This document shows positions 9,660 to 55,511 of a stretch of 64,000 nucleotides of DNA, piece after piece. Under the pieces are notes generated by a model, which was not told the DNA's origin, ran no database searches, and saw nothing but the letters and a program-made list of their open reading frames with translations. How positions within the stretch are numbered: position 1 is the first letter of the stretch; the number at the start of each line of letters is the position of its first letter. The stretch is from positions 23,374,001 through 23,438,000 of the forward strand of contig OX597815.1 of NCBI GenBank assembly GCA_951406725.2. The letters run 5' to 3'. The stretch comes from Octopus vulgaris (Eukaryota). The position numbers and the translations under genes are program-made.

Positions 9660-9782
9660 AATCGGCACTTAATGAGAAATGTGAAAGAGATACATCCTGC
9701 ATAGATGAATTTGCCATTTGCAGAAATCAAAAGTGTGTCTGTCAAGATGATTATTTTGAAGATGAATCTAAGTGTAAAAAAA
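9660..9782 (+). CDS. RPTP exon: 6-Cys EB/EGF-like module copy 1 (SALNEKCERDTSCIDEFAICRNQKCVCQDDYFEDESKCKK)
   Basis: TTTCATTGCAG acceptor, GTAAGT donor, 123 nt phase 1-1, C-x5-C-x6-C-x4-C-x-C-x10-C. Confidence 0.85.
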
Positions 9783-9864
9783 GTAAGTTAAAAACAACAG
9801 AACTTTGACATTGAACTATAAAAAGGATTACAATTACTCTTAGAAATAATTTTAAAAAAATAGA

Positions 9865-11080
9865 GGTGTAGGTAGAAACTCTATAAGATGTACCCAGTGT
9901 AAGCTATGGACACATAAGAGGTGCAGTAATATCAAGGGAAGGCTAATTGAGAAGATAGTTTTTGTATGTGGCAGATGCTCGGGAGCGATAAACACTGAAA
10001 ATGTGCAGAGACCAACTTCTGCCACATTCCAGGGAGAAAAACTAGAAGTAGTTGATAGCTTCCGTTACTTAGGGACCAAGTCAGTAGCGGAGGCGGGTGC
10101 ACTGAAAGTGTAGCTGCTAGAATAAGAATAGCTTGGGCAAAGTTCAGAGAGCTCTTACCTCTGCTGGTGACAAAGGGCCTCTCACTCAGAGTAAAAGGTA
10201 GACTGTATGACACTTGTGTATGAACAGCCATGCTACATGGCAGTGAAACATGGGCTGTGACTGCTGAGGTCATGTGTAAGCTCGCAAGGAATGAAGCCAG
10301 TATGATCTGATGGATGTGTAATGTCAGTGTGCATACTAGACAGAGTGTAAGTACCTCGAGAGAAAAGTTGGACCTAAGAAGCATTAGATGTGATGTGCAA
10401 GAGAGACGACTGCGCTGGTATGGTCACGTGGTGAGAATGGATGAGGATAGCTGTGTGAAAAAGTGCCACACCCTAGCTGTTGAGGGAACCTGTGGAAGCA
10501 GTAGACCTGGGATGAAGTGGTGAAGTACGACCTTCGAACTTTAGGCCTCACCAAGGAAATGACTAGCGACTGAGACTTTTGGAAATATGCTGTGCTTGAG
10601 AAGACGCGGCAAGCCAAATGAGACCATAATCTGTGGCTTATGCCAGGAGCGTCACCAGCCCGCTTATGCATACCTTTTCCTTCTTTGGTCACTAAACTCT
10701 GCTTGCGAAGACCTGTTGAGGCAAGTGAAATCGAAATCAAAATCAAAATCAAATTCGATGACTGGCATCCGTGCTAGCGAGGTGCAAAGAGCACCATATA
10801 AGGGTGATCGTTGACAGAGCGGCTAACCGGCTTCCGTACCAGTGGCACATAAAAGGGCACCATTTGAGTGTGATCGTTACCAGCATCGCCTTACTGGCAC
10901 CTGTGCTGGTGGCATGTGTAAAAAGATTCGAGCGAGGTCGTTGCCAGTACCACCTGACTGGGTCCCGTGCTGGTGGCACGTAAAAAGCACCCACTTACAA
11001 TCTCAGAGTGGTTGGCATTAGGAAGGGCATCCAGCTGTAGAAACTCTTCCAGATCAAGATTGGGGCCTGGTGCAGCCATT
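9865..11080 (+). mobile_element. RTE-clade LINE 3' part plus 3' UTR repeats (duplicated at ~18019-19230)
   Basis: GVGRNSIRCTQCKLWTHKRC and ERRLRWYGHVVRM motifs; GTGGCACGTAAAAAGCACC repeats. Confidence 0.85.
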
Positions 11081-12650
11081 TGAGTAATTTCCCAAAAATC
11101 AGGGTTTTTATAACTACTCATATCCGAATTCTAAGAACTGTATTTCGTGAAAGATTTCTTTTACGAAAGTTTAGAATTCATATATGGGCAGTAATTTTAA
11201 CCATTGGGATACCAACAATTGTGCTTGTTCGGGCAAACGAACATTATGTAATATTGCCACCTTTTATGACTTGCTACATAGGTATAATGTACATATACCA
11301 CATTATGAGACTATGAGGTAATATATGTGAAATTAAGTTCCTATTTCTTGCTAATCAATCTGTATTGTTGACTTGTCGAGTAATACATTCAAAGTGTTTG
11401 TGAAAGAGACAATAAAATGAGTTTAGATTGGAATAACTGAAGACTGAAGGTTGTTTTTCATATATTAACCATAAAATTTAATTCTTCAAGTTCTCTTAGG
11501 AAGATGAAAGTGCATTAATGTTTGTTGGGAGGAAGGTGAGAGTGGGAGAAATGTGAGAGTAGGAGGATGGTAAGAGTGGGAGGAAGGTGAGTGAATGCCA
11601 CTGATCAAACTGCTTGCAAAGCAGTGAAAAGAACAACAATTATGATGCCACTACCTACAATGGTGATGATGGTGGTTAAGATGGTGTATCATACTGTATA
11701 TTAAAAAGATGGTGGTGTTTCAGTATACAGTACAGTATGTGTAGCATAATTTTAACTATTATTAGAGCACTAGTGTAGCTAGAGGGGAACAGAGGGTTTG
11801 TCTTCCCTGTACAGCACTTTTATGGGTGTGGTGCCACTTTTGGGTCTGCTGTAGGCAATATGTACTTTTTGTGACAGCCCAGGTATGGCAGACTGAAGGG
11901 CCACCCTGGATGGCAGACACGCTAGCTACACTATTGTATTAGAGTGGTGCATTGGTAGAGTGGCAGTACATCAGCCTTTGATATTTAGTTGCATATCTTT
12001 ACATTCTGAATTAAAATCTTCCCAAGATCAGCTTTACGTTTCATTTTTCTAGAGTCAATAAAATAAGTTCCAGTATTCTGCTGAACCTAGTATAAGCAAC
12101 AGTCCCTTTTCCTCATAAATATGTGGTCCTTGTGTTTCCATTATGAATGATAATTTAAATTATCAGCTAATGAGATGTGATTTATACTTTAGTTTAACTG
12201 CTCACCTCTACACATACATATGTAGCAAACCTAGGTATTCTCTGTGTCTCAACGTGATCCTGGTGCTAAACTTACAGCCATCCTAGGCTGCATCCAGAGA
12301 AACACAACCTGAATGATTGGTATGAAGTCACTCGTAATACTCCAACCTCTGGCTCATTGACATGCCGTCTCCTCTCTGCATTATCTACCACTGCTACAAT
12401 GACCTCTGCTGTCAGAACCGACAGATCTTGTGTTACTTCCATTCAGTCTTTCCTCACTTACCTCTTCCACTCTCATTACCCATAATATGTCTCCACAGGG
12501 TTCATATTAATTACTTTACCAATTCCTTTCTTGCTGAAGCGTTGGCACTCAGGAATTCTGTCCCTGTTCATGTTTCTTCTGTAGCTGTTGTCTTAAAATT
12601 GTTCAAGAAGAATATCATATGTATCTCACTAGTCTGAGAGGGGCTACTAT

Positions 12651-13035
12651 GGAGGCGCAATGGCCCAGTGGTTAGGGCAGCAGACTCGCGGTCATAGGAT
12701 CGTGGTTTCGATTCCCAGACCGGGCGTTGTGAGTGTTTATTGAGCGAAAAACACCTAAAGCTCCACGAGGCTCCGACAGGGGATGATGGTGATCCCTGCT
12801 GTACTCTTTCACCACAACTTTCTCTCACTCTTACTTCCTATTTCTGTTGTACCTGTATTTCAAAGGGCCGGCCTTGTCACTCTCTGTGTCACGCAGAATA
12901 TCCCCGAGAACTACGTTAAGGGTACACGTGTCTGTGGAGTGTTCAGCCACTTACACGTTAATTTCACGAGCAGGCTGTTCTGTTGATTCGGATCAACCGG
13001 AACCCTCGTCGTCGTAACCAACGGAGTGCTTCCAT
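12651..13035 (+). mobile_element. tRNA-derived SINE family C (GGAGGCGCAATGGCCCAGTGG...GGTTTCGATTCCC)
   Basis: A and B boxes; copies at 20801-21198 and 52782-53163. Confidence 0.85.
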
Positions 13036-13365
13036 GGCTATAAGTGCAGCTCATTTCTCCAGACCAAACCAAAAATATAAAATAGTGTTTCTGTTATCAG
13101 CAGTATAGCGTAAATTTCACCATATATGTCAAAATTGTGATGCAAGAAACCCTAACTAAATGTACAATAGCAAACATAAGCAAGCTGGAAAAGAAAAATT
13201 AACCTCAGTGTTTTAATTTTAAGAAATATACTAATAATAGTGGGCTGCTAATGGTAGCTTGTATTAAACATGTATTACAATGAAAGCTTAATTATTCCAT
13301 ACTTTATGTTGCTGCATACTAGCATGTTGTAATGTGTATGTTACCAGTAATAGTGTTTGGTTTAA

Positions 13366-13586
13366 CCCTTTAGTGTTCGCATTATTCTACCCAAATTAAT
13401 GCTTTTTCATCCTCGTAGTTTTGAACTAATCATGCATTATCTTGTAGCTATGAGATTTTGATGAGGTAGCTGTTAATTTTTAAAACGATATTGTAGGGTT
13501 GGTGTGAGAGACCAAATCTGGCCAGTTTGACCATAAAACAGGCAGAATACTTTAGGCCGGATATGGCCGGTTTAAATGCTAAAGGG
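13366..13586. mobile_element. TTAA-flanked MITE (piggyBac-like termini CCCTTTAG...CTAAAGGG)
   Basis: TTAA on both sides and terminal inverted repeats; other copies at 21531-21751, 45587-45807 and 55730-56515. Confidence 0.75.
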
Positions 13587-13895
13587 TTAAATCACCAGTG
13601 TATATGTTTGTTTTACAGTATAGATGATTGGTATTGATATGTTGTAGAGAAGGGCGGTGAATGAAGTGTTTATTAAAGGAATAATTGATGAATCTTCTCT
13701 ACGACATAAAAATATTTATTTACTTTAAACTACAAAAAATCAACAAAACAGTCTCAGCAATCGAGCGAGCGAGTGAGAGAGGGAGAGAGTTAAACAGGGT
13801 AAATTTTTAAGCTTGTTGATGTGTGTGTATGTTAGTGTCAGGCAAGCTGTGCTCTTCTGGTGATGTTGACCAGGGTTAAAGGTATGTATATGTAT

Positions 13896-14130
13896 AGGCG
13901 GCGAGCTGGCAGAAATGGTAGCACGCCGGGCGAAATGCTTTGCAGTATTTCGTCTGCCGTTACGTTCTGAGTTCAAATTCCGCCGAGGTCGACTTTGCCT
14001 TTCATCCTTTCGGGGTCGATTAATTAAGTACCAGTTACACACTGGGGTCGATATGATCGACTTAATCCGTTTGTCTGTCCTTGTTTGTCTCTTCTGTGTT
14101 TAGCCCCTTGTAGGTAGTAAAGAAATAGGT
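13896..14130 (+). mobile_element. SINE-like family B copy (duplicated at 22066-22300)
   Basis: Reverse complement of 4845-5066. Confidence 0.75.
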
Positions 14131-14429
14131 ATGTATATGGATTTGTACGACAAAGCATGGCTGGTTATGGTAGTTAATCCCTGTTGCTGCTACTGCAGTT
14201 GTGACTAACAACATATCATAGTGATGATAGTGAACATGTTTAACCATAGGATACCAATAACCTATGTTGAATAATCTCTCAGTCTCTATTTTAATAAAGG
14301 AGGTTAGAAGAATGAGTTGAGGATAGAGGGATCAGGAAATATCAAGCTGACATTTCTGGTTGACAAGAAAATACCAACAAAAGGTCTTTTCTTCATTTCC
14401 CAATGAAACAAATATCTTGAAAAATAAGG

Positions 14430-15643
14430 GTGTGACTGGTCCCTCCAGGGAGCTGGCCCTGCTCAATATATAGAAAAATAGTAGTTGAAACTCCATACAG
14501 TGTACCCAGTGCAAGCTATGGACACATAAGAAGTGCAGCAGTGTCACAGGAAGGTTAACCCTTTCGTTACTAACCCGGCCGTACCCAACCGAAAAATTAT
14601 TTTTTGGTTCATAATACCAACCCGGCCGTGAGAACCTGTTGTTATTTAAATGTAAATTTGAACCCAAATCTCACCCTTTCGTTACTAACCCGGCCGTATA
14701 GAGAAAGTAGTCTGTGTGTGTGGCAGGTGTGCAGGTACAATAAACACAAAGAATGTACAGAATATAGCTTTCCTCAAATGTCTGGTGGGTGGGGTTCCTT
14801 AGAAGTAGTAGATAACTTCTGTTACCTAGGTAACCAAGTTAACATTGGAGGAGGACGCTCTGGCAGTGTAGTTGCTAGAGTAAGAATGGGCTGACAAAGT
14901 TGGTAACAAAGGGGGTTTCCTTCAGCATGAAAGGCAGATTGTATGCTATCTGTATATGAATAGCGATGCTCCATGACAGTGAATCATGGGATGTGACTAT
15001 AGAGGATAAGTGAAGGCTTGAAAGAAATGAAGCCAGCATACACCACTGGATGGGTAATGTCACTGTGCATGTGTGACAGAGTGTAAATAATTTAAGAAAA
15101 TAACCAGGTACAAGAGGCATCAGATGTAATGTGCATGAGAGAAGACTGCGAGTGTGGTTATTGGATGTGTATGGATGAGAACAACTGCATAAAGAAGTAC
15201 CTATCTCTAAGCTGTAGAGGGAGCCTGTAGAAGGGGTAGATAGAGGAAGATGTAGGACAGAGTGGTGAGAAAGGATCTTCAGATATTGAGCCACAATGAG
15301 GGGATGACAAGGGAATGAGACTTCTGGCAATTTGGTGTGCTTGAGAAGACATGTCAAGCTAAGTAAAATTGTGGCCATCCATACATAGAGGTATGTCCTT
15401 TATGGCCATCACTCCCTCTCCTCATCAAGCACACATAATTCTGTCCTATGGCAAAACTCACCCCCAACCCATCTTACCAAAACCTCTATCACCCGCTATA
15501 TGCCCCTCCAGTTCCTCTCAATGTCACTTCTTATCTCTAAATACATCCCCTCACACTGTTATGATACATCTTTAATTCATCTGTGTGACTCATACCCTTC
15601 TACCCACTATTCCCTGTAGGTAGGCCCTCACTCTCTCTCTCTC

Positions 15644-15694
<51 letters not shown>

Positions 15695-16133
15695 GCTTTT
15701 TTATCCTATTGGGGTAGCCAAATATTTCTTGTCACAAAACAGCTATCTGTATCCTCTGATCATACCCCAACCTCTCGCCTGTCACATGACCACTTCTCTC
15801 AGCTGAGACATCTTTGTCTTGCAAGCCACTTGGTGACCTTGTGGGTACTGGCACCATGTAAAAAGCATCCATGCTGGTACTACATAGGAAGTACCTGTGC
15901 CATGCTGGTGTCACATAAAAAGCACTTGTGCCAGTACTACGTAATAAGCACCCAGTACACTCTCTGGAGTGGCTGTCATTTGGAAGGTCATCTAGCTATA
16001 AAACCCATGTTTGAACAGGCAACTGGGACCTGGTTCAGCCCTCTGGCTTGCTAACTCTTGTTGAACCATCCAGCCTATGCCGGCATGGAAAATGGATGAT
16101 AAATGATGATGATGATGACGACGATAATGATGA
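14430..16133 (+). mobile_element. Older degenerate RTE 3' fragment with (GAT)n tail (duplicated at ~22600-24297)
   Basis: WPCS...NSIQCTQCKLWTHK and LEVVDNFCYLGNQV remnants; tail CCGGCATGGAAAATGGATGATAAATGATGATG. Confidence 0.7.
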
Positions 16134-16450
16134 AGGCCTGATTTAGTAGTATTAGCAGACAAAGTGAATAGAAAGAGCCAGGTAGTTGATTTTACAGTCA
16201 CAAATGATGAGAAAGTCAACTTCAAAATATAGAAAAAATATCAAAGTACCAGGACATAGCCATTGAGTTACAGAGGTTATGGAAAATGTGGGCAAAATAC
16301 ATTCCAGCAGTTAAATGTGCATCAGGAACTATCTTTAGATATATGAACAGATGCATAGAGGAAATAGGCATAAAACTTAGTTTAGTGCAGTTCCAGAAAA
16401 CAGTATTAGTATGGTCAGCTAGGATACTTAGGAAAGGTTTCGTCATCTAA
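16134..16450 (+). mobile_element. R4/Dong-like LINE C-terminal restriction-like endonuclease remnant (duplicated at 24298-24614)
   Basis: RPDLVV...VVDFTV...KYQDIAIEL.RLW...QKTVL..SARILRK. Confidence 0.7.
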
Positions 16451-16628
16451 GGTTAGAAATTTTGGCAAAAGACTGGCAATTTGGTGGGATGGGGTAAGTC
16501 AATTACATCGACCCCAGTGTTCAACAGGTAATCCCTTATTAACATAGAAACACAGAAATTCAAAATATGAATGAGGAAATCCTGCATTCCTTCTTAGATA
16601 CAAAAAAAAAAAAACATTATTATTATTA

Positions 16629-16683
<55 letters not shown>

Positions 16684-17813
16684 AGTAATTGTTTCCAATT
16701 TTAGTACAAGGCCAGCAATTTTGGATAGGGGATAAGTTGATTACATCAACTGCAGTACTCAAGTGGTACTTATTTTATTGACCCAGGTATAGTGTGGATT
16801 CAATCCTCGATGGCCAAATTTCACTTAACAGTTCAACAGCACTTTTCTCACGGTAAAACGGTAGTTTTCCTGTGAGTGACAGCTGTTACATTTGCCAGAT
16901 GCCTTTGCTAAGCAGAATAATATCTTTGCCACTTGACCCTTCTAACCTCTTCTATTTCACCAAAAGCTAGAATAGACATAACAGACCACCAACGAAATCT
17001 ATTGTTCTCAACAATATGTCTATCCTTCTGGCTGGTTTTGGATAGTTAGAAAAACAAGAACTCCCTCTGTAAGCCAAAGCAGTTAGTGAGAGCGACTGAC
17101 AGAGAGGCGGCTGACCAGCTCAAACAAAATACTGTCTCTACTGAGATAACTTCAGAGAGTGACAACAATGTAGAAAGTGTCTCATCCCACACTCTCTCAT
17201 TTTCATTAGCTCCCTTTCTTTTCTCTGCAACATCACCATATCTCTATATATATACTACTTTGTGTACACTCATATACAGGCCAAAATTAACTCTTTTTAC
17301 CTTGCATGCTTTACAAACTGTGTTATACTATTACACTAGCCTACCTGTTGTGGTATGGTATATATTAAAGTAACGGTAAATAAATATTTCTTTACAACCA
17401 CTATCACTGTTCTCTTCCATCTTGCATACTGGCAACCAACACCTTAACAACAAACCGTTACACTTTCTTGAGTGTTTTCCAGTGTAATTTTTCTTTATAT
17501 TTTCAGTTTGTTTTGTTACCCTCCAACACATTTTGATCATAAACATTCTTGTTAAACTTGAAACTTTGATGCATGTTCTCCCAAAATGTACCTAATTCAT
17601 TTTTAAAGAAAGAAATCTTTTGATATCTTCCTAAAATTATGAATAATAAATATAATAACAATAATATATTATCATAAGAGAAAATCTAATAGCATTATCT
17701 AACAATTCAGAAATGCATTATTTCTGTTGTTGAGTTTCATAAATTTTAATATAATAATTATTATAAGTTGGTGTACACAGTTTAATTTTTATAATTAATG
17801 TGTTTCATTGCAG

Positions 17814-17936
17814 AATCGGCACTTAATGAGCATTGTGAAAGAGATACATCCTGCATAGATGAATTTGCCATTTGCAGAAATCAAAAGTGTGTCTGTCAAG
17901 ATGATTATTTTGAAGATGAATCTAAGTGTAAAAAAA
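17814..17936 (+). CDS. RPTP exon: 6-Cys module copy 2 (K>H relative to copy 1)
   Basis: Same splice sites and length as 9660-9782; codon AAA>CAT. Confidence 0.8.
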
Positions 17937-20800
17937 GTAAGTTAAAAACAACAGAACTTTGACATTGAACTATAAAAAGGATTACAATTACTCTTAGAAA
18001 TAATAAAAAAAAAAATAGAGGTGTAGGTAGAAACTCTATAAGATGTACCCAGTGTAAGCTATGGACACATAAGAGGTGCAGTAATATCAAGGGAAGGCTA
18101 ATTGAGAAGATAGTTTTTGTGGCAGATGCTCGGGAGCGATAAACACTGAAAATGTGCAGAGACCAACTTCTGCCACATTCCAGGGAGAAAAACTAGAAGT
18201 AGTTGATAGCTTCCGTTACTTAGGGACCAAGTCAGTAGCGGAGGCGGGTGCACTGAAAGTGTAGCTGCTAGAATAAGAATAGCTTGGGCAAAGTTCAGAG
18301 AGCTCTTACCTCTGCTGGTGACAAAGGGCCTCTCACTCAGAGTAAAAGGTAGACTGTATGACACTTGTGTATGAACAGCCATGCTACATGGCAGTGAAAC
18401 ATGGGCTGTGACTGCTGAGGTCATGTGTAAGCTCGCAAGGAATGAAGCCAGTATGATCTGATGGATGTGTAATGTCAGTGTGCATACTAGACAGAGTGTA
18501 AGTACCTCGAGAGAAAAGTTGGACCTAAGAAGCATTAGATGTGATGTGCAAGAGAGACGACTGCGCTGGTATGGTCACGTGGTGAGAATGGATGAGGATA
18601 GCTGTGTGAAAAAGTGCCACACCCTAGCTGTTGAGGGAACCTGTGGAAGCAGTAGACCTGGGATGAAGTGGTGAAGTACGACCTTCGAACTTTAGGCCTC
18701 ACCAAGGAAATGACTAGCGACTGAGACTTTTGGAAATATGCTGTGCTTGAGAAGACGCGGCAAGCCAAATGAGACCATAATCTGTGGCTTATGCCAGGAG
18801 CGTCACCAGCCCGCTTATGCATACCTTTCCTTCTTTGGTCACTAAACTCTGCTTGCGAAGACCTGTTGAGGCAAGTGAAATCGAAATCAAAATCAAAATC
18901 AAATTCGATGACTGGCATCCGTGCTAGCGAGGTGCAAAGAGCACCATATAAGGGTGATCGTTGACAGAGCGGCTAACCGGCTTCCGTACCAGTGGCACAT
19001 AAAAGGGCACCATTTGAGTGTGATCGTTACCAGCATCGCCTTACTGGCACCTGTGCTGGTGGCATGTGTAAAAAGATTCGAGCGAGGTCGTTGCCAGTAC
19101 CACCTGACTGGGTCCCGTGCTGGTGGCACGTAAAAAGCACCCACTTACAATCTCAGAGTGGTTGGCATTAGGAAGGGCATCCAGCTGTAGAAACTCTTCC
19201 AGATCAAGATTGGGGCCTGGTGCAGCCATTTGAGTAATTTCCCAAAAATCAGGGTTTTTATAACTACTCATATCTGAATTCTAAGAACTGTATTTCGTGA
19301 AAGATTTCTTTTACGAAAGTTTAGAATTCATATATGGGCAGTAATTTTAACCATTGGGATACCAACAATTGTGCTTGTTCGGGCAAACGAACATTATGTA
19401 ATATTGCCACCTTTTATGACTTGCTACATAGGTATAATGTACATATACCACATTATGAGACTATGAGGTAATTTATGTGAAATTAAGTTCCTATTTCTTG
19501 CTAATCAATCTGTATTGTTGACTTGTCGAGTAATACATTCAAAGTGTTTGTGAAAGAGACAATAAAATGAGTTTAGATTGGAATAACTGAAGACTGAAGG
19601 TTGTTTTTCATATATTAACCATAAAATTTAATTCTTCAAGTTCTCTTAGGAAGATGAAAGTGCATTAATGTTTGTTGGGAGGAAGGTGAGAGTGGGAGAA
19701 ATGTGAGAGTAGGAGGATGGTAAGAGTGGGAGGAAGGTGAGTGAATGCCACTGATCAAACTGCTTGCAAAGCTGTGAAAAGAACAACAATTATGATGCCA
19801 CTACCTACAATGGTGATGATGGTGGTTAAGATGGTGTATCATACTGTATATTAAAAAGATGATAGTGTTTCAGTATACATTACAGTATGTGTAGCATAAT
19901 TTTAACTATTATTAGAGCACTAGTGTAGCTAGAGGGGAACAGAGGGTTTGTCTTCCCTGTACAGCACTTTTATGGGTGTGGTGCCACTTTTGGGTCTGCT
20001 GTAGGCAATATGTACTTTTTGTGACAGCCCAGGTATGGCAGACTGAAGGGCCACCCTGGATGGCAGACACGCTAGCTACACTATTGTATTAGAGTGGTGC
20101 ATTGGTAGAGTGGCAGTACATCAGCCTTTGATATTTAGTTGCATATCTTTACATTCTGAATTAAAATCTTCCCAAGATCAGCTTTACGTTTCATTTTTCT
20201 AGAGTCAATAAAATAAGTTCCAGTATTCTGCTGAACCTAGTATAAGCAACAGTCCCTTTTCCTCATAAATATGTGGTCCTTGTGTTTCCATTATGAATGA
20301 TAATTTAAATTATCAGCTAATGAGATGTGATTTATACTTTAGTTTAACTGCTCACCTCTACACATACATATGTAGCAAACCTAGGTATTCTCTGTGTCTC
20401 AACGTGATCCTGGTGCTAAACTTACAGCCATCCTAGGCTGCATCCAGAGAAACACAACCTGAATGATTGGTATGAAGTCACTCGTAATACTCCAACCTCT
20501 GGCTCATTGACATGCCGTCTCCTCTCTGCATTATCTACCACTGCTACAATGACCTCTGCTGTCAGAACCGACAGATCTTGTGTTACTTCCATTCAGTCTT
20601 TCCTCACTTACCTCTTCCACTCTCATTACCCATAATATGTCTCCACAGGGTTCATATTAATTACTTTACCAATTCCTTTCTTGCTGAAGCGTTGGCACTC
20701 AGGAATTCTGTCCCTGTTCATGTTTCTTCTGTAGCTGTTGTCTTAAAATTGTTCAAGAAGAATATCATATGTATCTCACTAGTCTGAGAGGGGCTACTAT

Positions 20801-21198
20801 GGAGGCGCAATGGCCCAGTGGTTAGGGCAGCAGACTCGCGGTCATAGGATCGCGGTCATAGGATCGTGGTTTCGATTCCCAGACCGGGCGTTGTGAGTGT
20901 TTATTGAGCGAAAAACACCTAAAGCTCCACGAGGCTCCGACAGGGGATGATGGTGATCCCTGCTGTACTCTTTCACCACAACTTTCTCTCACTCTTACTT
21001 CCTATTTCTGTTGTACCTGTATTTCAAAGGGCCGGCCTTGTCACTCTCTCTGTCACGCTGAATATCCCCGAGAACTACGTTAAGGGTACACGTGTCTGTG
21101 GAGTGTTCAGCCACTTACACGTTAATTTCACGAGCAGGCTGTTCTGTTGATTCGGATCAACCGGAACCCTCGTCGTCGTAACCAACGAAGTGCTTCTA
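20801..21198 (+). mobile_element. SINE family C copy with a private 14-bp tandem duplication
   Basis: Matches 12651-13035 except for an extra TCGCGGTCATAGGA. Confidence 0.85.
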
Positions 21199-23812
21199 TG
21201 GCTATAAGTGCAGCTCATTTCTCCAGACCAAACCAAAAATATAAAATAGTGTTTCTGTTATCAGCAGTATAGCGTAAATTTCACCATATATGTCAAAATT
21301 GTGATGCAAGAAACCCTAACTAAATGTACAATAGCAAACATAAGCAAGCTGGAAAAAAAAAAATTAACCTCAGTGTTTTAATTTTAAGAAATATACTAAT
21401 AATAGTGGGCTGCTAATGGTAGCTTGTATTAAACATGTATTACAATGAAAGCTTAATTATTCCATACTTTATGTTGCTGCATACTAGCATGTTGTAATGT
21501 GTATGTTACCAGTAATAGTGTTTGGTTTAACCCTTTAGTGTTCGCATTATTCTACCCAAATTAATGCTTTTTCATCCTCGTAGTTTTGAACTAATCATGC
21601 ATTATCTTGTAGCTATGAGATTTTGATGAGGTAGCTGTTAATTTTTAAAACGATATTGTAGGGTTGGTGTGAGAGACCAGATCTGGCCAGTTTGACCATA
21701 AAACAGGCAGAATACTTTTGGCCGGATATGGCCGGTTTAAATGCTAAAGCGTTAAATCACCAGTGTATATGTTTGTTTTACAGTATAGATGATTGGTATT
21801 GATATGTTGTAGAGAAGGGCGGTGAATGAAGTGTTTATTAAAGGAATAATTGATGAATCTTCTCTACGACATAAAAATATTTATTTACTTTAAACTACAA
21901 AAAATCAACAAAACAGTCTCAGCAATCGAGCGAGCGAGCGAGGGAGAGAGGGAGAGAGTTAAACAGGGTAAATTTTTAAGCTTGTTGATGTGTGTGTATG
22001 TTAGTGTCAGGCAAGCTGTGCTCTTCTGGTGATGTTGACCAGGGTTAAAGGTATGTATATGTATAGGCGGCGAGCTGGCAGAAATGGTAGCACGCCGGGC
22101 GAAATGCTTTGCAGTATTTCGTCTGCCGTTACGTTCTGAGTTCAAATTCCGCCGAGGTCGACTTTGCCTTTCATCCTTTCGGGGTCGATTAATTAAGTAC
22201 CAGTTACACACTGGGGTCGATATGATCGACTTAATCCGTTTGTCTGTCCTTGTTTGTCTCTTCTGTGTTTAGCCCCTTGTAGGTAGTAAAGAAATAGGTA
22301 TGTATATGGATTTGTACGACAAAGCATGGCTGGTTATGGTAGCTAATCCCTGTTGCTGCTACTGCAGTTGTGACTAACAACATATCATAGTGATGATGGT
22401 GAACATGTTTAACCATAGGATACCAATAACCTATGTTGAATAATCTCTCAGTCTCTATTTTAATAAAGGAGGTTAGAAGAATGAGTTGAGGATAGAGGGA
22501 TCAGGAAATATCAAGCTGACATTTCTGGTTGACAGGAAAATACCAACAAAAGGTCTTTTCTTCATTTCCCAATGAAACAAATATCTTGAAAAATAAGGGT
22601 GTGACTGGTCCCTCCAGGGAGCTGGCCCTGCTCAATATATAGAAAAATAGTAGTTGAAACTCCATACAGTGTACCCAGTGCAAGCTATGGACACATAAGA
22701 AGTGCAGCAGTGTCACAGGAAGGTTAACCCTTTCGTTACTAACCCGGCCGTACCCAACCGAAAAATTATTTTTTGGTTCATAATACCAACCCGGCCGTGA
22801 GAACCTGTTGTTATTTAAATGTAAATTTGAACCCAAATCTCACCCTTTCGTTACTAACCCGGCCGTATAGAGAAAGTAGTCTGTGTGTGTGGCAGGTGTG
22901 CAGGTACAATAAACACAAAGAATGTACAGAATATAGCTTTCCTCAAATGTCTGGTGGGTGGGGTTCCTTAGAAGTAGTAGATAACTTCTGTTACCTAGGT
23001 AACCAAGTTAACATTGGAGGAGGACGCTCTGGCAGTGTAGTTGCTAGAGTAAGAATGGGCTGACAAAGTTGGTAACAAAGGGGTTTCCTTCAGCATGAAA
23101 GGCAGATTGTATGCTATCTGTATATGAATAGCGATGCTCCATGACAGTGAATCATGGGATGTGACTATAGAGGATAAGTGAAGGCTTGAAAGAAATGAAG
23201 CCAGCATACACCACTGGATGGGTAATGTCACTGTGCATGTGTGACAGAGTGTAAATAATTTAAGAAAATAACCAGGTACAAGAGGCATCAGATGTAATGT
23301 GCATGAGAGAAGACTGCGAGTGTGGTTATTGGATGTGTATGGATGAGAACAACTGCATAAAGAAGTACCTATCTCTAAGCTGTAGAGGGAGCCTGTAGAA
23401 GGGGTAGATAGAGGAAGATGTAGGACAGAGTGGTGAGAAAGGATCTTCAGATATTGAGCCACAATGAGGGGATGACAAGGGAATGAGACTTCTGGCAATT
23501 TGGTGTGCTTGAGAAGACATGTCAAGCTAAGTAAAATTGTGGCCATCCATACATAGAGGTATGTCCTTTATGGCCATCACTCCCTCTCCTCATCAAGCAC
23601 ACATAATTCTGTCCTATGGCAAAACTCACCCCCAACCCATCTTACCAAAACCTCTATCACCCGCTATATGCCCCTCCAGTTCCTCTCAATGTCACTTCTT
23701 ATCTCTAAATACATCCCCTCACACTGTTATGATACATCTTTAATTCATCTGTGTGACTCATACCCTTCTACCCACTATTCCCTGTAGGTAGGCCCTCACT
23801 CTCTCTCTCTCA

Positions 23813-23858
<46 letters not shown>

Positions 23859-24793
23859 ACTTTTTTATCCTATTGGGGTAGCCAAATATTTCTTGTCACA
23901 AAACAGCTATCTGTATCCTCTGATCATACCCCAACCTCTCGCCTGTCACATGACCACTTCTCTCAGCTGAGACATCTTTGTCTTGCAAGCCACTTGGTGA
24001 CCTTGTGGGTACTGGCACCATGTAAAAAGCATCCATGCTGGTACTACATAGGAAGTACCTGTGCCATGCTGGTGTCACATAAAAAGCACTTGTGCCAGTA
24101 CTACGTAATAAGCACCCAGTACACTCTCTGGAGTGGCTGTCATTTGGAAGGTCATCTAGCTATAAAACCCATGTTTGAACAGGCAACTGGGACCTGGTTC
24201 AGCCCTCTGGCTTGCTAACTCTTGTTGAACCATCCAGCCTATGCCGGCATGGAAAATGGATGATAAATGATGATGATGATGACGACGATAATGATGAAGG
24301 CCTGATTTAGTAGTATTAGCAGACAAAGTGAATAGAAAGAGCCAGGTAGTTGATTTTACAATCACAAATGATGAGAAAGTCAACTTCAAAATATAGAAAA
24401 AATATCAAAGTACCAGGACATAGCCATTGAGTTACAGAGGTTATGGAAAATGTGGGCAAAATACATTCCAGCAGTTAAATGTGCATCAGGAACTATCTTT
24501 AGATATATGAACAGATGCATAGAGGAAATAGGCATAAAACTTAGTTTAGTGCAGTTCCAGAAAACAGTATTAGTATGGTCAGCTAGGATACTTAGGAAAG
24601 GTTTCGTCATCTAAGGTTAGAAATTTTGGCAAAAGACTGGCAATTTGGTGGGATGGGGTAAGTCAATTACATCGACCCCAGTGTTCAACAGGTAATCCCT
24701 TATTAACATAGAAACACAGAAATTCAAAATATGAATGAGGAAATCCTGCATTCCTTCTTAGATACAAAAAAAAAAAAAACATTATTATTATTA

Positions 24794-24851
<58 letters not shown>

Positions 24852-25981
24852 AGTAATTGTTTCCAATTTTAGTACAAGGCCAGCAATTTTGGATAGGGGA
24901 TAAGTTGATTACATCAACTGCAGTACTCAAGTGGTACTTATTTTATTGACCCAGGTATAGTGTGGATTCAATCCTCGATGGCCAAATTTCACTTAACAGT
25001 TCAACTGCACTTTTCTCACGGTAAAACAGTAGTTTTCCTGTGAGTGACAGCTGTTACATTTGCCAGATGCCTTTGCTAAGCAGAATAATATCTTTGCCAC
25101 TTGACCCTTCTAACCTCTTCTATTTCACCAAAAGCTAGAATAGACATAACAGACCGCCAACAAAATCTATTGTTCTCAACAATATGTCTATCCTTCTGGC
25201 TGGTTTTGGATAGTTATAAAAACAAGAACTCCCTCTGTAAGCCAAAGCAGTTAGTGAGAGCGACTGACAGAGAGGCGGCTGACCAGCTCAAACAAAATAC
25301 TGTCTCTACTGAGATAACTTCAGAGAGTGACAACAATGTAGAAAGTGTCTCATCCCACACTCTCTCATTTTCATTAGCTCCCTTTCTTTTCTCTGCAACA
25401 TCACCATATCTCTATATATATACTACTTTGTGTACACTCATATACAGGCCAAAATTAACTCTTTTTACCTTGCATGCTTTACAAACTGTGTTATACTATT
25501 ACACTAGCCTACCAGTTGTGGTATGGTAGATATTAAAGTAACGGTAAATAAATATTTCTTTACAACCACTATCACTGTTCTCTTCCATCTTGCATACTGG
25601 CAACCAACACCTTAACAACAAACCATTACACTTTCTTGAGTGTTTTCCAGTGTAATTTTTCTTTATATTTTCAGTTTGTTTTGTTACCCTCCAACACATT
25701 TTGATCATAAACATTCTTGTTAAACTTGAAACTTTGATGCATGTTCTCCCAAAATGTACCTAATTCATTTTTAAAGAAAGAAATCTTTTGATATCTTCCT
25801 AAAATTATGAATAATAAATATAATAACAATAATATATTATCATAAGAGAAAATCTAATAGCATTATCTAACAATTCAGAAATGCATTATTTCTGTTGTTG
25901 AGTTCCATAAATTTGAATATAATAATTATTATAAGTTGGTGTACACAGTTTAATTTTTATAATTAATGTGTTTCATTGCAG

Positions 25982-26104
25982 AATCGGCACTTAATGAGAA
26001 ATGTGAAAGAGATACATCCTGCATAAATGAATTTGCCATTTGCAGAAATCAAAAGTGTGTCTGTGAAGATAAATATTTTCGTCTTCGAACTAAGTGTGAA
26101 AAAA
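25982..26104 (+). CDS. RPTP exon: 6-Cys module copy 3 (SALNEKCERDTSCINEFAICRNQKCVCEDKYFRLRTKCEK)
   Basis: Same acceptor and donor, 123 nt phase 1-1, all Cys retained. Confidence 0.85.
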
Positions 26105-26210
26105 GTAAGTTAAAAACAACGGAACATTGACATTGAACTACAGAAAGGACTACAATTACTCTTAGAAATAATTTTTTAAAAATAGATAAAAGTTACAGAT
26201 ATATTGAAAG

Positions 26211-30850: not shown

Positions 30851-31334
30851 TGATGATGGCGGTGACAACGATGGCGATGATGAAAGCAACAATAATGGTG
30901 ATAATGTTTTTCATTTCTATATATCAGTTGTGTCATAATCTTCAACATCAAACTGACAATTTATCATTTATTTGAATGTATAAAAATCAGTATAACAATA
31001 ATTTAATTTCTCTAGTTTGATTGTCCTAATAACTTTTGACTCTTCACAGAGCTAGCCTATGGTAAAAACTGTTCCGTGGAAGAGTGTCTTGATAAAAGGG
31101 CCCACTGTAATGAGCAACACAGGTGTGATTGTTTTGAGGTCTATTTTTGGAAACACGGAAAATGTGTAGACAGTAAGTAAACGTGTTATGATTGATTGAT
31201 TCTAGTTTCAGCTCACGAGCTGTGGCCATGCTGGGGCACTGCCATATGAGGACATTAAATTTTCTTCTTGTCAACTCTCTTTTAATTTAAGTTCAAAAAT
31301 AGAAAACCTTGAGGATATATTCCGTGTATTCTTT

Positions 31335-33494: not shown

Positions 33495-33623
33495 AGAAAG
33501 GTTTTGATGAAAAATGTGAAGAAGGGGATCAGTGTAAGGCTCGTAATGCCTATTGTTCCACTGAAACAAAGAGATGTACTTGCTCTGACAATTACAAGCA
33601 AAGTGAAACCATCTGTGTAAAAA
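33495..33623 (+). CDS. RPTP exon: divergent 6-Cys module 4 (KGFDEKCEEGDQCKARNAYCSTETKRCTCSDNYKQSETICVK)
   Basis: TTTCAG acceptor, GTAAGT donor, 129 nt phase 1-1, same Cys pattern with a 2-residue longer loop. Confidence 0.85.
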
Positions 33624-33789: not shown

Positions 33790-34539
33790 GAATAATGTAC
33801 ATATACCACATTATGAGACTATGAGGTAATTTGTGTGAAATTCGGTTCCTATTTCTTGCTAATCAATCTGTATTGCTGACTTGTCGAGTAATACATTCCA
33901 TGTGTTTGTGAAAGAGACGATAAAATGAGTTTAGATTGGAATAACTGAGGACTGAAGGTTGCTTTTTATATTTTAACCAAAAAATTTAATTCTTCAAGTT
34001 CTCTTAGGAAGATGAAAGTGCATTGATCTTTGTTGGGAGGAAGGTGAGAGTGGGAGAAATGTGAGAGTAGGAGGAAGGTAAGAGTGGGAGGAAGGTGAGA
34101 GAATGCTGCTTGCAAAGCTGTGAAAAGAACAACAATTATGATGCCACTACCTACAATGGTGATGATAGTGGTTAAGATGGTGTATCATACTGTATATTAA
34201 AAAGATGATAGTGTTTCAGTATACATTACAGTATGTGTAGCATAATTTTAACTATTATTAGAGCACTAGTGTAGCTAGAGGGGAACAGAGGGGTTGTCTG
34301 CCCTGTGCAGTACTTTTATGGGTGTGGTGCCATTTTTGGGTCTGCTTTAGGCAATATGTACTTTTTGTGGCAGCCCAGGTGTGGCAGACTGAAGGGCCAC
34401 CCCGGATGGCAGATACGCTAGCTACACTATTGTATTAGAGTAGTGCATTGGTAGAGTGGCAGTACATCAGCCTTTGATATTTAGTTGCATATCTTTACGT
34501 TCTGAATTGAAATATTCCCAAGATCAGCTTTACGTTTCA
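33790..34539 (+). repeat. Dispersed copy of intronic block 11281-12042 / 19431-20192
   Basis: Colinear match from ATAATGTACATATACCACATT to CAGCTTTACGTTTCA with scattered substitutions. Confidence 0.92.
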
Positions 34540-35505
34540 GCCAGCATCTTTTCCTTTCCCACCAAATCATCACATTAGTAAAAACAATGATTTCATGACA
34601 GACTCAAAAGCAGGCCAAATAGAGGCAATGCCAGATATAAAGGAAATCAGTGTAAAAAGGAATATAGCAGAAGTATCACGAGCAACAGATATACCTGCAA
34701 ATGCGCAACCATTTAATGCACAAGGAAATTTAATATCATCAACTGTATCTTATGCTTCAGCATTACTTGCCGCACTTGAGAATGGAACAAAACTCAATGA
34801 TTCTGAACTAACAACTCCATTCAGTGCATCTCGGAATACAATGTTAATTAACACAACTGGAGAAGACACTTCTTATATATAATAATAAACATTGTGTACA
34901 GTGCTCAGGTGCACTACAACTCATCTAAAGTGTATATATAATCAGGTGTAGTTTTGGCGGATTTCGGAAAGCATGAGGGCCTTAAAGGATGCAGTGTCAT
35001 GGCAGTCAACAACTGACGCAGGCAGTTTATTCCATGCTTCAGCAACTCTGAGCGTGAAAAAATGTTTCCGAAAGTCATGGGAGCTGTGTTGTTTTCTGAC
35101 TTTGTAGGCATGTCCACGTGTGTTAGACACATGGAGATCAAAAAGGTGTTCAGTGTTGTTGTTGGTGAGGTGGTTGATAACTTTGTGGGTGTTTACCAAA
35201 TCCGTCGCCAGACGCCGGAGCTTCAGTGAATCCATGCCCAGGGAAACAAGGCGCTCAGAATATGGTAGGTGTCTGATGGAGGGTATGCGTTTGGTTGCAC
35301 GTCTCTGGACAGATTCCAGGAGGTCAATGTTCTGAGCAAGATAGGGATTCCAAACTGATGATGCGAATTCCAAGTGTTATGTAACAGCATCGACCAGTTA
35401 CACAGTTTGACACACAAACACGATCAATGAACACATCTGAAGAAACATCAACTCAATATGCAATCACAACACCTTTAATAACTACGACTACTCGTAAAGA
35501 ATTAT
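34538..35505 (+). pseudogene. Pseudo-exon: duplicate of the Ser/Thr-rich exon (1169-~1645), interrupted by a CR1-like LINE fragment
   Basis: ORF 34595..34882 is nearly identical to the start of ORF 1227..1673; stop at the insertion; homology resumes at ~35377 (TTATGTAACAGCATCGACCA) with a small deletion and a mutated donor. Confidence 0.9.
34880..35374 (-). mobile_element. CR1-like LINE 3' fragment inserted in the pseudo-exon
   Basis: ORF 34942..35373: LESVQRRATKRIP...YSERL...TRGHAYK...FFTLRVAEAWNKLP; TTAT on both sides as a possible TSD. Confidence 0.88.
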
Positions 35506-36414
35506 AATTGTTTAAGAAGGATATTACATGGATCATCTTCCATTTGATCAACTTCCATCATATCATCTTCTGTTTGATTGGAACCTTCCATAGATCATGT
35601 TTGTTGCTCCCAGCAAATTATCTCATAATTGTCTTTTATGTTATAGGTTGGTTCCTCCTTCTTTGAACTCATAGATTGCTGAGATATCTTTCAGTTTCAT
35701 GTCTCTCTTTTTCAAATTATCTTCTGCGTCTGGGACTACTTTGGTATATTAGTATTCAAATCATCTGTCTATTCTGTTTTCTTGTCAGTCTAAAGTGAAT
35801 TGGGCTTGTATGTTTGCCCAAGTGATTGGTATGCAAGGTAGCTGACGTGTTTTCTAATGTTAGTGTTATAAAATGGTTAGATCACTTGTGCCACAAATCT
35901 CCAAGAGTCTTGATCTTTCATTCTGTATTCCATAACGTACTCTCTGTCTTCATTGGAGTACCCAACATCACATTGTCCAATATATCCATTAGAGTCACCA
36001 GCCATGGCAGCAAGATCAAGAAAACTAGACATAAATATAGGTGGAAAAAAAAAATCACCTGAATTTCACATGGTATTCAATCTCACCATTATATTTTTTT
36101 CTGATCAAGTTAAATAATAGTATTCTAGATTTGTAAACTCAATAGAGATGGTCAAGACAATAATGTGTAGCGCTTGATATATTGCCATATTTAACTTTGC
36201 TCTTCTTGATTCTGACTCCAAATCTCATAGTGATTGAACTTATCATCTTTCTTATCCTCCAAGATTGATGAATAAATATATCAAGGTAATCCAGTCCTAA
36301 AAACATTTGGCCTTTTATCTAATGAAAAAAAATTACCAACATTCTAAATATCTAAATACTATAAGCCTTTATTACTGATATGTTACATAAATTGATTCTA
36401 TTCTATATTTACAG

Positions 36415-36508
36415 TTGTTTTTCCCTATTGGTGGCTTGGAATTATCATTGCTATTCTCATTCTGGTCATATTAGTTTTCATTTATTTATTCCTCCGTCAG
36501 TTGAAACA
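36415..36508 (+). CDS. RPTP exon: transmembrane helix (IVFPYWWLGIIIAILILVILVFIYLFLRQLK)
   Basis: TTTACAG acceptor, GTAAGT donor; ~21 hydrophobic residues followed by basic residues; phase 1-2. Confidence 0.88.
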
Positions 36509-39578: not shown

Positions 39579-40676
39579 GCATTCCATAAAACATTTCGTT
39601 TAACACTGTTATGGCCTTCTTTTGCTGAAAACTATGTAGTTATATGCATACTTCTAACCTGATTTTGAATTTCAGTTTTTTTATTAATAAACTTCGTAAC
39701 CAAGTCGTTGGTGTGAATTTAAAACATATTTTTAAATTTAAAAAATAGTTTGGTGAGATTGACACAGTTAATATGCCTTTTGAACTGTTGTAAGTTGATA
39801 GCTGCATGAAAACATGGGCAAAGAAGGAACATATGGGAATCAAATGTTCTGAGCTGGAAGGCCTGAGAAAAGAATTTATTGTAGGGTATGGGAAGAGTAA
39901 ACACAATATGGGTTAGGAGAAGAGGAGAGAGAGAGAGATGAATGAGGTTGGTACAAAATCAGCCAGCTCTGAGGAGCAGAAGCCACAGAAGTGGTGATAA
40001 GAAAAGTAGAGAGAAGAGATAGTAGCTCCATGCCAATCAGTCAGGTAGTCCTATTGTGAATGTGGTCTAAGGAGTCTGCATGTCTAGTAGAGCACCATCT
40101 CTGAGTTGGAGCATTATAGCATTTCTGTATTGTATTTCATTTGAGCTTTGTAAAGAGTTTGTAGTTGCTGAAAACTGAAGTATTTTCTGTGCATTTAAGT
40201 ATTACATTATATATTATCTATCATAACTGGATTTTTGTATTTATCATATCATATACCTTATTCTCATTAAAAATAAATCATATTTAAATATAAAATATAT
40301 TATATTGCATTATGTCATTAAGCATCATACTTAATTCCTATCTTCTTGGAAAACATTTTCAGAATTAAAATATTGTATTAAAAGATTGACATTGGAAAAA
40401 TATTCCAAGGCTGCCTTTTGTATGAATGATGTGTTGTTAAATGTCTGCTATCATTCCTGATATGGTGAACCTCAAATAATTTTAATCAACTGAAATTATA
40501 ATCATAATTGAAAGAAAATTAAATAGCATTAACAAAATATTATTCTGATAAGCATCATGAGGAAGAACTTCCAAAGTTTCCATTGACCAAGCATTAAATT
40601 AAGCTGTGCATAAAATTGTTTGACATTAAACGATGATGATGATTATGATATCAATCTTGTTTTGATAATCTTTCAG

Positions 40677-40736
40677 GACAACTGGCAACGTTAATTTCTT
40701 GAAATTAAGACCTTTTAAAACACTATCACATAAAAG
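40677..40736 (+). CDS. RPTP exon: juxtamembrane (TTGNVNFLKLRPFKTLSHK)
   Basis: CTTTCAG acceptor, AG/GTTGGT donor, 60 nt phase 2-2, open and phase-compatible with neighbours. Skippable in frame, so it is not required by the model. Confidence 0.65.
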
Positions 40737-42004
40737 GTTGGTTCCTTCCTTTGTTTTCTTCTTTTCTTTTGTACTAACTTGTGGTTTGTTATGGACAATA
40801 TTGTATATAGAGTGAGTTTGTTAGACCTGCTAAGCAATTATTTTGCTAACATAGAATAAGTCAGCCAATATTGTCTGACTTAAATGTTATATGTTTATAA
40901 TACACTAACACTATTTGATAATTCAAACAGGTTATTTTTTTTCTGATATTATAATTCAGTAAGGTGTGTATGATTTTAGCTTGTTGAAGCCCTTTCATTG
41001 GTAATAATATATGTGAAACTGGAGCTGTTAATCAAAAATATAGTTTCAATTTCGATGAAGTCCACAGCACCTTATTTGCCGAACCATTATTTTTTTGTCA
41101 TATAATCTGAAATTGATTTGACCAATTTTGAAGTTGTACTTGACAAATATGTGACTTGATCTGAGGATATATATTGAAACTGTAGCAATTGCACTTCAGA
41201 AGAACCATTCTAGACATTTAGATACTCATGAAACCTGTTAAATTTACTTTTAATTTATTTCACAAGGTTTCAAAATTTTGTCATCCAGCTGTGATCTAGG
41301 CGTTGACACAATTCTACTGCCTCTGATCCCATCACCCTACTTCATTTTTTTGTAAATAAATTATAGATTTTGTAGCATGGTAAAGAAATGTTCTACTTTA
41401 ATATAGCATACATTCAAAATTAACTGTCAAGAAAACAAAGAAGAAATTGTTAGAATGACAATAATATATGTAATGTTGTAAACAAGCAAATAAATGCATA
41501 AATGAATAAAACAGAAACTAAATGTGACTAATGATGATTGACTGAAGACTGATGTTATAGACTCAAGAAAATCTTCATGGTTATAGCAAGTTCATATATC
41601 CCTATATAAATTTCAACATGAAAGGAAAAAAAGAAAAAGACACACAAAAAAAAAAGAACTGCTGCCTATAATAACTTGCTATTGTCAGTCTTTCCAAGAA
41701 TTACAGTGGAGTTGCATCAGTAACCAGGTCACAGTTGGGCAAAAGAAATTTTTTTGACTTCTCATGAAATAATTTGAAAGTGAATTTCACCGTTTTTAAT
41801 GGGTTATTAAATTGATAAAATGACTCTTCTACAATGTTATTGCATTAGCATAATATTTACTAGTAATTAAAAAAGATATATGGGGTTTTCTAAGAAGAAA
41901 ATGTGCTTGCTTGATGAAACTTTTTAGATGACAGCCAATGTTGATTTTGAAAATCTAAATTTTACTATAGAATAACATTTGTAGATTCTGTAGACTCTTA
42001 GAAA

Positions 42005-42177
42005 GATTTTTTTCACGCTCAGAGTTGCTGAAGCATAGAATAAACTGCCTGCGTCAGTTGTTGACTGCCATGACACTGCATCTTTTAAGGCCCTCATGCT
42101 TTCCGAAATCCGCCGAAACTACACCTGATTATATATACACTTTAGATGAGTTGTAGTGCACCTGAGCACTGTACACA

Positions 42178-42216
<39 letters not shown>

Positions 42217-43235
42217 GATCAAGGAAAATGAGCTTTTGAGATATAGGAAGTAGTTTTAACCTCAGTGATTTCTTAATTTCTTTTTTCCAAGTTATCATTT
42301 CAAGTTCTTAAAACATAATCCTATGGACTCATTTTCTGCAAGTGGGGCAAAGCTAATACCACATATATCAGGAATCATCACAAAATTAGAGTTATTGTAA
42401 TTTTAATGTCATAACTCAATATTTTAAAGCTTCAACATTTGTTAACATGAGTGTTTAATTTCCTGCAGACCATACAAAATCAAGAATTTTCTACATATGG
42501 ATTCAAAAACTTTTATCCAAGATTATAAGGTAATCCACTTTAAATCATTTGATTGTTTACATTTAATCTCTTAGGTTAAGAGAATAAGAAAAATGTTTGG
42601 CATGTATCTCAAAAGTGAAAAAAAAAAAAAGGAAAATATCTTGTTTAAAAGTTCATCAACCAACTGAAATTTAGATAGTTTTGATAAACAGAAGAGATAA
42701 AAAGATGAGATTGGTAAGATTGGGAGAATACAGACATCTATAATGAAATAATTGGGTGATTTTACTATGATATATGATGTTATACATACAAAAAGCTGCA
42801 GCAGGTTGAGTAGGGATGGAAATGGATTACAAACACCCACAAAATTATTAACCATTGTGCCAACAACCACCTTGAGCAACTTTTTGAGCTTCATGTGTCT
42901 AACACACATGGGCATGCCTACAAAGTCAGAAAGCAGCACAGCTCCCATGACTTTTGGAAACATTTTTTCACACTCAGAGTTGTCAAAGAATGGAACAAAC
43001 TATCTGCATCGGTTATTAGTTGCAGAGACATTGCATCCTTTAAAACCTCCATGTTTCCTAAAATTCACCAACACTACACCTGATATCCCCTGCTCCATAT
43101 GCATGTACACATGTGTATCATAATTCATACACTGTTCACTTTCCTGACTTTTGTACATAATTGTATGTACTGTACATACACCTCTGATGAGGTGTAAGTG
43201 CACCTGAGCACTATAAACAGTAATTTCATTATTAT
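42005..43235 (+). mobile_element. Two CR1-like 3' fragments (42005-42215 with (ATT)n tail; 42790-43235) flanking exon 42469-42529
   Basis: Reverse complement of parts of 34880-35374. Confidence 0.8.
42469..42529 (+). CDS. RPTP exon: pre-PTP helix (RPYKIKNFLHMDSKTFIQDYK)
   Basis: TCCTGCAG acceptor, AAG/GTAATC donor, phase 2-0; resembles the RP..I..F...F..EY segment that precedes RPTP domains. Confidence 0.8.
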
Positions 43236-43703
43236 ATATAATATTTATATGTCACCACGAATGTGATGCCTTCCTGAGAAGGACAGGGAGAAAGAAAGCA
43301 CTCTCAAAATTCTAGTTTTTGTTCCTTTATGATGAGTGCATTTGGATAACAAACTGCTTGAGATTTCTGCAATGGATGACACACTTTGTAAGTTCTTGTT
43401 TCCCATAGTTATAAATAGGTTGTTTTCCAAGTGAAGCTCATAACAAATTGCTTATTTCAGTAGCAGGAAATACACCAAAGCAACGAAAGAACTGCCATTA
43501 ATTATATCTGGGCCAAAACACGCCTTAGATATTTGTGTGCTAACTTAAGAATATTCTTTTGATAAATAATAATTGGGACATATTAACGAAACTGGAATTT
43601 GATGTTTTTCTTTTTCTTATCAGGAGATTGGTGATGGCAATTTATAATGATAAAACCAGATAATGAACAGTAAAACAAACAATAATTACACGTTTCATTT
43701 CAG

Positions 43704-43836
43704 ATTATAGGCAAAGTGAATCCATTTATTCTTACTGAGGAATCTGACCAGACCTCAAATGATACATTCCTACCCTGTACTGAAGCTCAAAAGCTTCAAA
43801 ATAAAAAGAAGAATCGATTTTTGAATGTGTTACCAT
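43704..43836 (+). CDS. RPTP exon: PTP motif 1 (...NKKKNRFLNVLP)
   Basis: TTTCAG acceptor, GTACGT donor, phase 0-1; KNR(Y/F) pTyr-recognition loop. Confidence 0.9.
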
Positions 43837-43859
43837 GTACGTAGATCTTTATTCTTCCT

Positions 43860-44072
43860 TTCTTTTCTTTTACTTGTTTCAGTCATATGACTGTGGCCAT
43901 GCTGGATCACCGCCTTTAATCGAGCAACTTGACCCCGGGACTTATTTTTGTAAGCCCAGTACTTATTCTATCGGTCTCTTTTGCCGAACCGCTAAGTGAC
44001 GGGGACGTAAACACACCAGCATCGGTTGTCAAGCAATTCTAGGGGGACAAACACAGACACACAAACACACAC

Positions 44073-44137
<65 letters not shown>

Positions 44138-44300
44138 TACGACAGGCTTCTTTCAGTTTCCGTCTACCAAATCCACTCACAAGGCATTGGTCGGCCCGAG
44201 GCTATAGCAGAAGACACTTGCCCAAAATGCCATGCAGTGGGACTGAACCCAGAACCATGTGGTTGGTAGGTAAGCTACTTACCACACAGCCACTCCTGCA
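43860..44300 (-). mobile_element. SINE family A copy
   Basis: Matches 594-980. Confidence 0.85.
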
Positions 44301-55467: not shown

Positions 55468-55511
55468 TCTATATTATTTCTTCTTTATTTTACCAAATTT
55501 ATAACTTTCAG

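Follow-up and report, generated by a model that had tools for sequence, protein, structure and literature searches.

Why two tandem exons of one octopus gene should be nearly identical over most of their length and yet end in loops of opposite charge is the question raised by this locus. In the window (the whole stretch of 64,000 nucleotides analysed here, positions 23,374,001 to 23,438,000 of contig OX597815.1 of Octopus vulgaris), an 8.15-kb tandem repeat holds exon copies at 9660, 17814 and 25982; exons, homology blocks and repeat copies are given below in window coordinates, and those listed all lie on the + strand. An earlier note on this DNA had attributed the charge reversal to diversifying selection on a ligand-contact loop. 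The tail difference is real and not an artefact, but it is older than the recent duplication, and it has likely outlasted repeated gene conversion around it.

EB modules in a receptor tyrosine phosphatase

The exon copies encode EB modules. These belong to the ectodomain of an Octopus receptor tyrosine phosphatase that has a single PTP domain. Each copy is 123 nt long with AG/GT borders in phase 1-1: c1 (9660..9782; A1, acidic tail) is the orthologue of module 1, c3 (25982..26104; A2, basic tail) is that of module 2 of O. sinensis and O. bimaculoides, and c2 (17814..17936) has a tail of the A1 type. A genome search for other close copies gave three matches and none beyond these. In profile searches two modules with six Cys scored 27 bits (c3) and 28.3 bits against a PF01683 cut-off of 24.3; EB exon 4 (33495..33623) falls below it at 22.5 bits, EB-like exon 3 (31050..31172) has no Pfam match by itself, and five EB stretches were found in the whole protein, P0001.

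P0001 is labelled in the database as a receptor-type PTP of Octopus vulgaris and carries the name PTPRC. It runs from a signal peptide (exon ~2.6 kb upstream of the window) through a Ser/Thr-rich stalk (1164..1635; Ser or Thr at 44 of 157 residues, six N-glycan sequons), the EB modules and a transmembrane helix (36415..36508) to a juxtamembrane part, one PTP domain and an acidic tail ending in TSEL (exons within 40675..57820). The PTP domain forms one stretch at residues 487-717 (PF00102, E=3e-72), in which the KNRF, WPD, HCSAGVGRTG and Q-loop motifs are present. Judged from sequence, the predicted signal peptide, transmembrane helix and PTP domain with its catalytic motifs identify the protein as a classical receptor PTP. 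A contig of run X19, which we guessed to be RNA, bounds c3 exactly at 25982-26104 with 0 differences and runs 152 and 55 nt past it, like a spliced transcript; a contig of run X16 matched an intron piece only. Annotated database isoforms exist with and without module 1. Another database model, P0006, joins a SENP8-like ORF (L048 and upstream) to the phosphatase, probably by annotation read-through. The intron between c3 and EB-like exon 3 contains an inverted repeat (29139-29735) with 234-nt arms, 99% complementary, and a 129-nt spacer.

Differences between c1 and c3 along the homology block

Our recount agrees with the earlier note that 13 nt separate c1 from c3, that these fall in 8 codons (D>N, Q>E, D>K, E>R, D>L, E>R, S>T, K>E; positions 26026, 26065, 26071, 26073, 26080-84, 26086, 26087, 26089 and 26098), that zero codons differ purely synonymously, that the Cys residues are kept in all copies, and that c2 adds K>H through 2 nt (17831 and 17833). 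Its figure of ~7 differences in the adjacent downstream intron also holds when a T/A run is counted, the aligned part having 5 in 68 nt; a 286-nt alignment has 20 mismatches. The upstream intron, omitted at the time, differs at only 3 of 745 nt. Along homology block A (~1,050 nt; 25129..26186, also 8810-9864 and 16961-18018), c1 and c3 differ at 6 of 104 nt at the 5' edge and at 4 of 825 nt in the centre, which comprises the upstream intron and the first part of the exon, with a single difference in its first 80 nt. The remaining 12 of the 13 exon changes fall within the last 43 nt (12/43).

Taken alone, the absence of synonymous differences argues only weakly for selection. In simulations with Cys fixed (5000 runs each, kappa 1-4), 12 changes placed in the last 42 nt left no purely synonymous codon with a probability of 0.11-0.33; for 13 changes spread over the exon, the value was 0.03-0.10. 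By Nei-Gojobori counting, the tail has a pN of 0.33-0.37 and a pS of 0.045-0.066 (pN/pS about 5-8), which is borderline in Fisher's test (0.013-0.075, with Sd 0.5 rounded to 0). The exon tail also differs more than the downstream intron (12/43 vs 5/68, p=0.004), but the two segments compared differ in age, conversion having likely reached the intron at a later date. Comparing an exon with flanking intron among tandem copies can thus mimic positive selection when conversion has reset the intron clock.

The charge contrast predates the split from O. bimaculoides

The tails of O. sinensis read QDDYFEDESK (acidic, first module) and EDKYFRLGTK (basic, second), and those of O. bimaculoides, compared as protein, read KDDYFEDKST (module 1) and NNKYFRRGSM (module 2). 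With both tails in O. bimaculoides, the duplication behind modules 1 and 2 predates the split from that species, which the available part of 10.1101/2023.05.16.540928 places at ~34 My, and that from O. sinensis at 2.5 My. The recent 8-kb duplication therefore did not create the contrast, which resides in codons 30-35, a divergence island that reads KYFRLR in the basic module (26071..26088) and DYFEDE in c1 (9749-9766) and c2 (17903-17920). Within it, orthologues are identical at 5/6 and 5/6 residues and paralogues at 2/6 in all three species. Its surroundings cluster by species instead: over codons 1-29, paralogues agree at 27/29 residues in O. vulgaris, 23/29 in O. sinensis and 13/29 in O. 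bimaculoides, and orthologues at 11/29 and 12/29, and the upstream intron follows suit. Among 22 informative sites, four of the five paralogue-type ones stand in one run (P=0.012, permutation of site order), and codons 29, 37 and 40, to either side of the island, are species-type. The C5-C6 loop as a whole exceeds other non-Cys sites in conservation by a modest margin only (23/40 vs 41/102, p=0.09), and in part for structural reasons, which counts against selective maintenance. It is possible that the module pair is much older still, since the distant homologue P0127 has four modules, of which the first has an acidic loop (charge -4) and the first two share 7/22 residues with each other vs 1-3/22 with the Octopus modules.

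Conservation of the contrast in orthologues points to a maintained difference rather than to ongoing diversification of the loop. That recent diversifying selection reversed the charge after the exon had duplicated, as first proposed, thus appears improbable. The pN/pS of the tail would favour such a scenario, as would the rates of the third and fourth modules and the exon variability in the vulgaris group described below. However, the contrast arose before the O. bimaculoides split and has been conserved since, fast change lies mostly outside the island, the simulated probabilities are not low, and exon and intron have unequal conversion age. The other part of the proposal, that selection acts on a loop exposed on a cell-surface receptor, is still likely. 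In an AF2 model of the module (25 sequences, mean pLDDT 87.6), strands 32-34 and 37-39 form a C-terminal beta-hairpin with its tip at 35-36, so that the island coincides with a predicted hairpin strand and tip. This hairpin is a plausible contact surface. Fold searches with the module were uninformative (Foldseek without a match at E<=0.001; best VIA Z 3.6), and a model of the full-length protein (pLDDT 39.8) was set aside.

Probable gene conversion on both sides of the island

The intron flanks are too similar for the age of the island. They differ at 5/68 and 11/172 nt against 0.21 expected at 34 My (P=0.002 and 1e-7; under 25 My, P=0.03 and 1e-4), by a clock of 0.0036 per My as quoted in the accessible portions of PMC13282606 and 10.1101/573493; for the 3' side this rests on that borrowed clock (0.0036 per My, 34 My), 68 nt and two protein sites, and the 2.5-My date of O. 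sinensis uses the same rate and is not an independent check. Gene conversion therefore likely homogenised both sides. On the 5' side, comparison of c3 with the orthologous A2 contig from run X11 gives, among the 17 of 19 differences listed, at least 8 in the exon, all non-synonymous and in agreement with the O. sinensis protein, and at least 9 in 448 intron nt. Seven of the exon differences are in the 5' half, in which c3 is the same as c1 or almost so. A1 sequence has therefore probably replaced this half of c3 during the last 2.5 My or so. Run X8 carries the same species label as the best-matching runs, but sinensis-like alleles at 4 exon codons.

On the 3' side, homology ends ~78 nt behind c1 at a young 5'-truncated repeat copy (9861..11082), which from its motifs we take to be an RTE-type LINE. 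It is 5.1-6.8% from 10 sister copies, an age that fits conversion downstream of c1 stopping some 8-10 My ago. A homology search of the c3 downstream intron against intron B, which follows c1, gave repeats only. The idea that block A lies inside one LINE was rejected: the flanking pieces are 76-80% (upstream) vs 92-94% (downstream) like their best kin (40 scored matches for each piece), and they are therefore two insertions.

It is appealing to propose, and we hold it to be somewhat better than an even chance, that an old acidic/basic difference survived repeated conversion, because selection retains a hairpin of each charge. Gene conversion would have copied sequence between the 1-kb blocks, which lie 8 kb from each other. 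This would have wiped out upstream differences, most recently in the vulgaris line (less than 2.5 My ago), and those of the 75 nt that flank the exon downstream up to some 8-10 My ago, when the LINE cut the homology. Selection would remove conversion tracts crossing codons 30-35 and leave the 18-nt island, and the two hairpins would make different contacts, with a ligand, a partner or a neighbouring module, that control the phosphatase. Such a divergence peak is described as a signature of selection against conversion that erases a functional difference (in the parts available of PMC3924837 and PMC2588116).

Perhaps, though this seems a good deal less probable, the same conversion left the island merely sheltered, with dense mismatches, the nearby block edge and the LINE stopping the tracts and the charge being incidental. 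Decay of conversion near edges is documented in what is accessible of PMC2588116, divergence is raised at the 5' edge as well, and the LINE lies ~78 nt downstream at 5-7% from its sisters. By the same token, selective maintenance is weakened by the position of the island 75-100 nt from the block edge, where that source leads one to expect rarer conversion, by its ten mismatches in 18 nt, which could stop repair without selection, and by the small number of independent conversions (about 3 inferred). However, divergence drops again between island and edge, from 28% to 7%, the LINE is far younger than the island, and orthologues share 5/6 residues in the island vs ~50% over the modules.

The earlier note had also allowed that a single complex mutation explains part of the cluster. 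For the copies as they stand today, an in-place inversion of 26077-26089 cuts 8 differences to 1+3 events (P=0.009, 1500 randomisations), and micro-inversions or template switches of this kind are known (PMC5453318, seen in part). However, the base at 26086 is recent, since G stands there in runs X11 and X8 and the residue is Gly in both outgroup proteins, and with the outgroup base the saving falls to 2 (P=0.43). S>T arose after the O. bimaculoides split, and D>K and the long retention would be left unexplained. That one such event made most of the cluster is thus unlikely, and it is not needed as an explanation. With its vulgaris-specific base, position 26086 makes a 4-bp inverted repeat perfect (26078-26089), and G>R could be a quasi-palindrome correction.

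Copy 2 and the reality of the tails

The second copy is a recombinant, its 5' side derived from an allele of the c3 block and its 3' side from c1. By site patterns, c2 agrees with c3 at its 5' edge but with c1 in the tail, the switch lying between 17833 and 17897, and it has 7 private changes before 17834. Its K>H probably passed through N: other runs contain two of the private c2 changes, one of them the T that produces Asn, so that codon 6 likely went from K through N to H in single steps. Intron B (9865-16960) and its recent copy B' (18019-25128), together spanning 9865..25128, differ by 27 substitutions in 7086 nt and 9 indels, which is within the allelic range (species heterozygosity 1.22% in the available text of 10.1101/2023.05.16.540928). 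Either unequal crossover or a haplotype mis-join predicts this one structure for c2. Contig depth gives conflicting tests: one ratio is 1.40, where 2.21 is expected for three copies and 1.5-1.6 for two, and a second segment gave 3.14, and 2.71 in a second organism. Assembly error is thus a doubt that attaches to c2 alone. As the source of the tail differences, sequencing or assembly error, which the earlier note had named as a refutation, is scarcely credible, since both tails recur in the database proteins of three species as well as in contigs from independent runs.

Rates of the modules and the stalk

All four modules are 51-57% identical to those of O. bimaculoides; the stalk reaches 74% and the PTP domain 94%. 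For EB3 and EB4, which have no conversion partner, the minimum dN is 0.23-0.31 where the clock predicts 0.245 (P 0.004-0.63, depending on how changes are counted), and without Cys codons 0.29-0.39, against 0.14 for the stalk and 0.03 for the PTP domain. A near-neutral rate in all EB modules despite fixed Cys hints, as far as sequence goes, at positive selection. In the 5' half of the exon, at least 11 of 84 nt vary in the vulgaris group (10 non-synonymous) vs at least 10 of 342 intron nt among the differences listed (p=0.0006, or 0.013 when each cluster counts as one). The ectodomain may plausibly be under positive selection, mostly outside the island, with borderline pairwise values for the tail, simulated ones compatible with chance, and rates for EB3 and EB4 that exceed the clock under some counting rules.

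The stalk (1164-1635) differs between O. vulgaris and O. sinensis at 24 of 155 residues, mostly in one stretch, which is well above the ~2% neutral divergence; the PTP domain differs at 0 of 242. Conversion from a pseudo-exon, old alleles or selection could account for this excess. A broken second copy of the stalk exon lies in the intron before the transmembrane exon (34537..35513; split by a ~500-nt insert, with 97.7% identity across 343 nt). It matches the working exon without a difference in the middle, whereas at the 5' end it retains NHHISK, the state seen in O. sinensis and O. bimaculoides; the pattern suggests conversion between the two copies.

Relation to known systems

The signature has precedents in human LW/MW opsin exon 5 and Drosophila CG18281/CG17637 (Teshima and Innan, 2008, as reported in the accessible parts of PMC3924837 and PMC2588116), where old duplicates of low divergence likewise retain a narrow ortholog-shared block between paralog-shared sites, with a non-synonymous excess. 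Unlike those peaks, the one described here spans 18 nt near a block edge, in tandem exons of one gene that both enter one protein. If selection holds the island, its six codons would mark a functional difference between two EB modules of the phosphatase, and the locus would be a compact intragenic example of an opsin-type divergence peak.

The modules resemble PF01683 in their six Cys, ~41 residues and scores above the curated cut-off, but are joined here to a receptor PTP, an architecture that our searches found only in three Octopus species and the homologue P0127. CD45/PTPRC is similar in its Ser/Thr-rich stalk and Cys-rich ectodomain, in evolving fast outside and being conserved inside, and in annotated isoforms with fewer ectodomain exons. 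However, CD45 has tandem D1-D2 PTP domains and FN3 domains, whereas the octopus protein has one PTP domain and, in a profile search at E up to 1, no FN3. The PTPRC label, a best-hit name, thus does not denote orthology. R3 receptor PTPs (PTPRJ, Ptp10D) share the single PTP domain and a YxN motif in the tail, which we take to be a mark of that group, but have FN3 repeats in place of EB modules.

A more speculative scenario, to which we would give little weight, is a cephalopod-restricted recognition receptor with a combinatorial ectodomain, caught in a host-pathogen or self/non-self arms race upstream of the phosphatase. Conversion would shuffle N-terminal halves that evolve fast onto fixed acidic and basic hairpins, unequal crossover along with exon skipping would vary the number of modules, and the broken stalk copy would serve as a template. 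While the evolutionary signature appears to be a known one, the literature searched yielded no description of this gene, which supplements of cephalopod transcriptome papers could list. The Argonauta hians orthologue P0011 has a model without EB modules and with a stalk of 9-residue tandem repeats, reflecting either loss or an annotation gap. Two more clusters of EB-module exons lie elsewhere in the O. vulgaris genome, at G000:C18:52826441-52854856 and C3:74574432-74628651.
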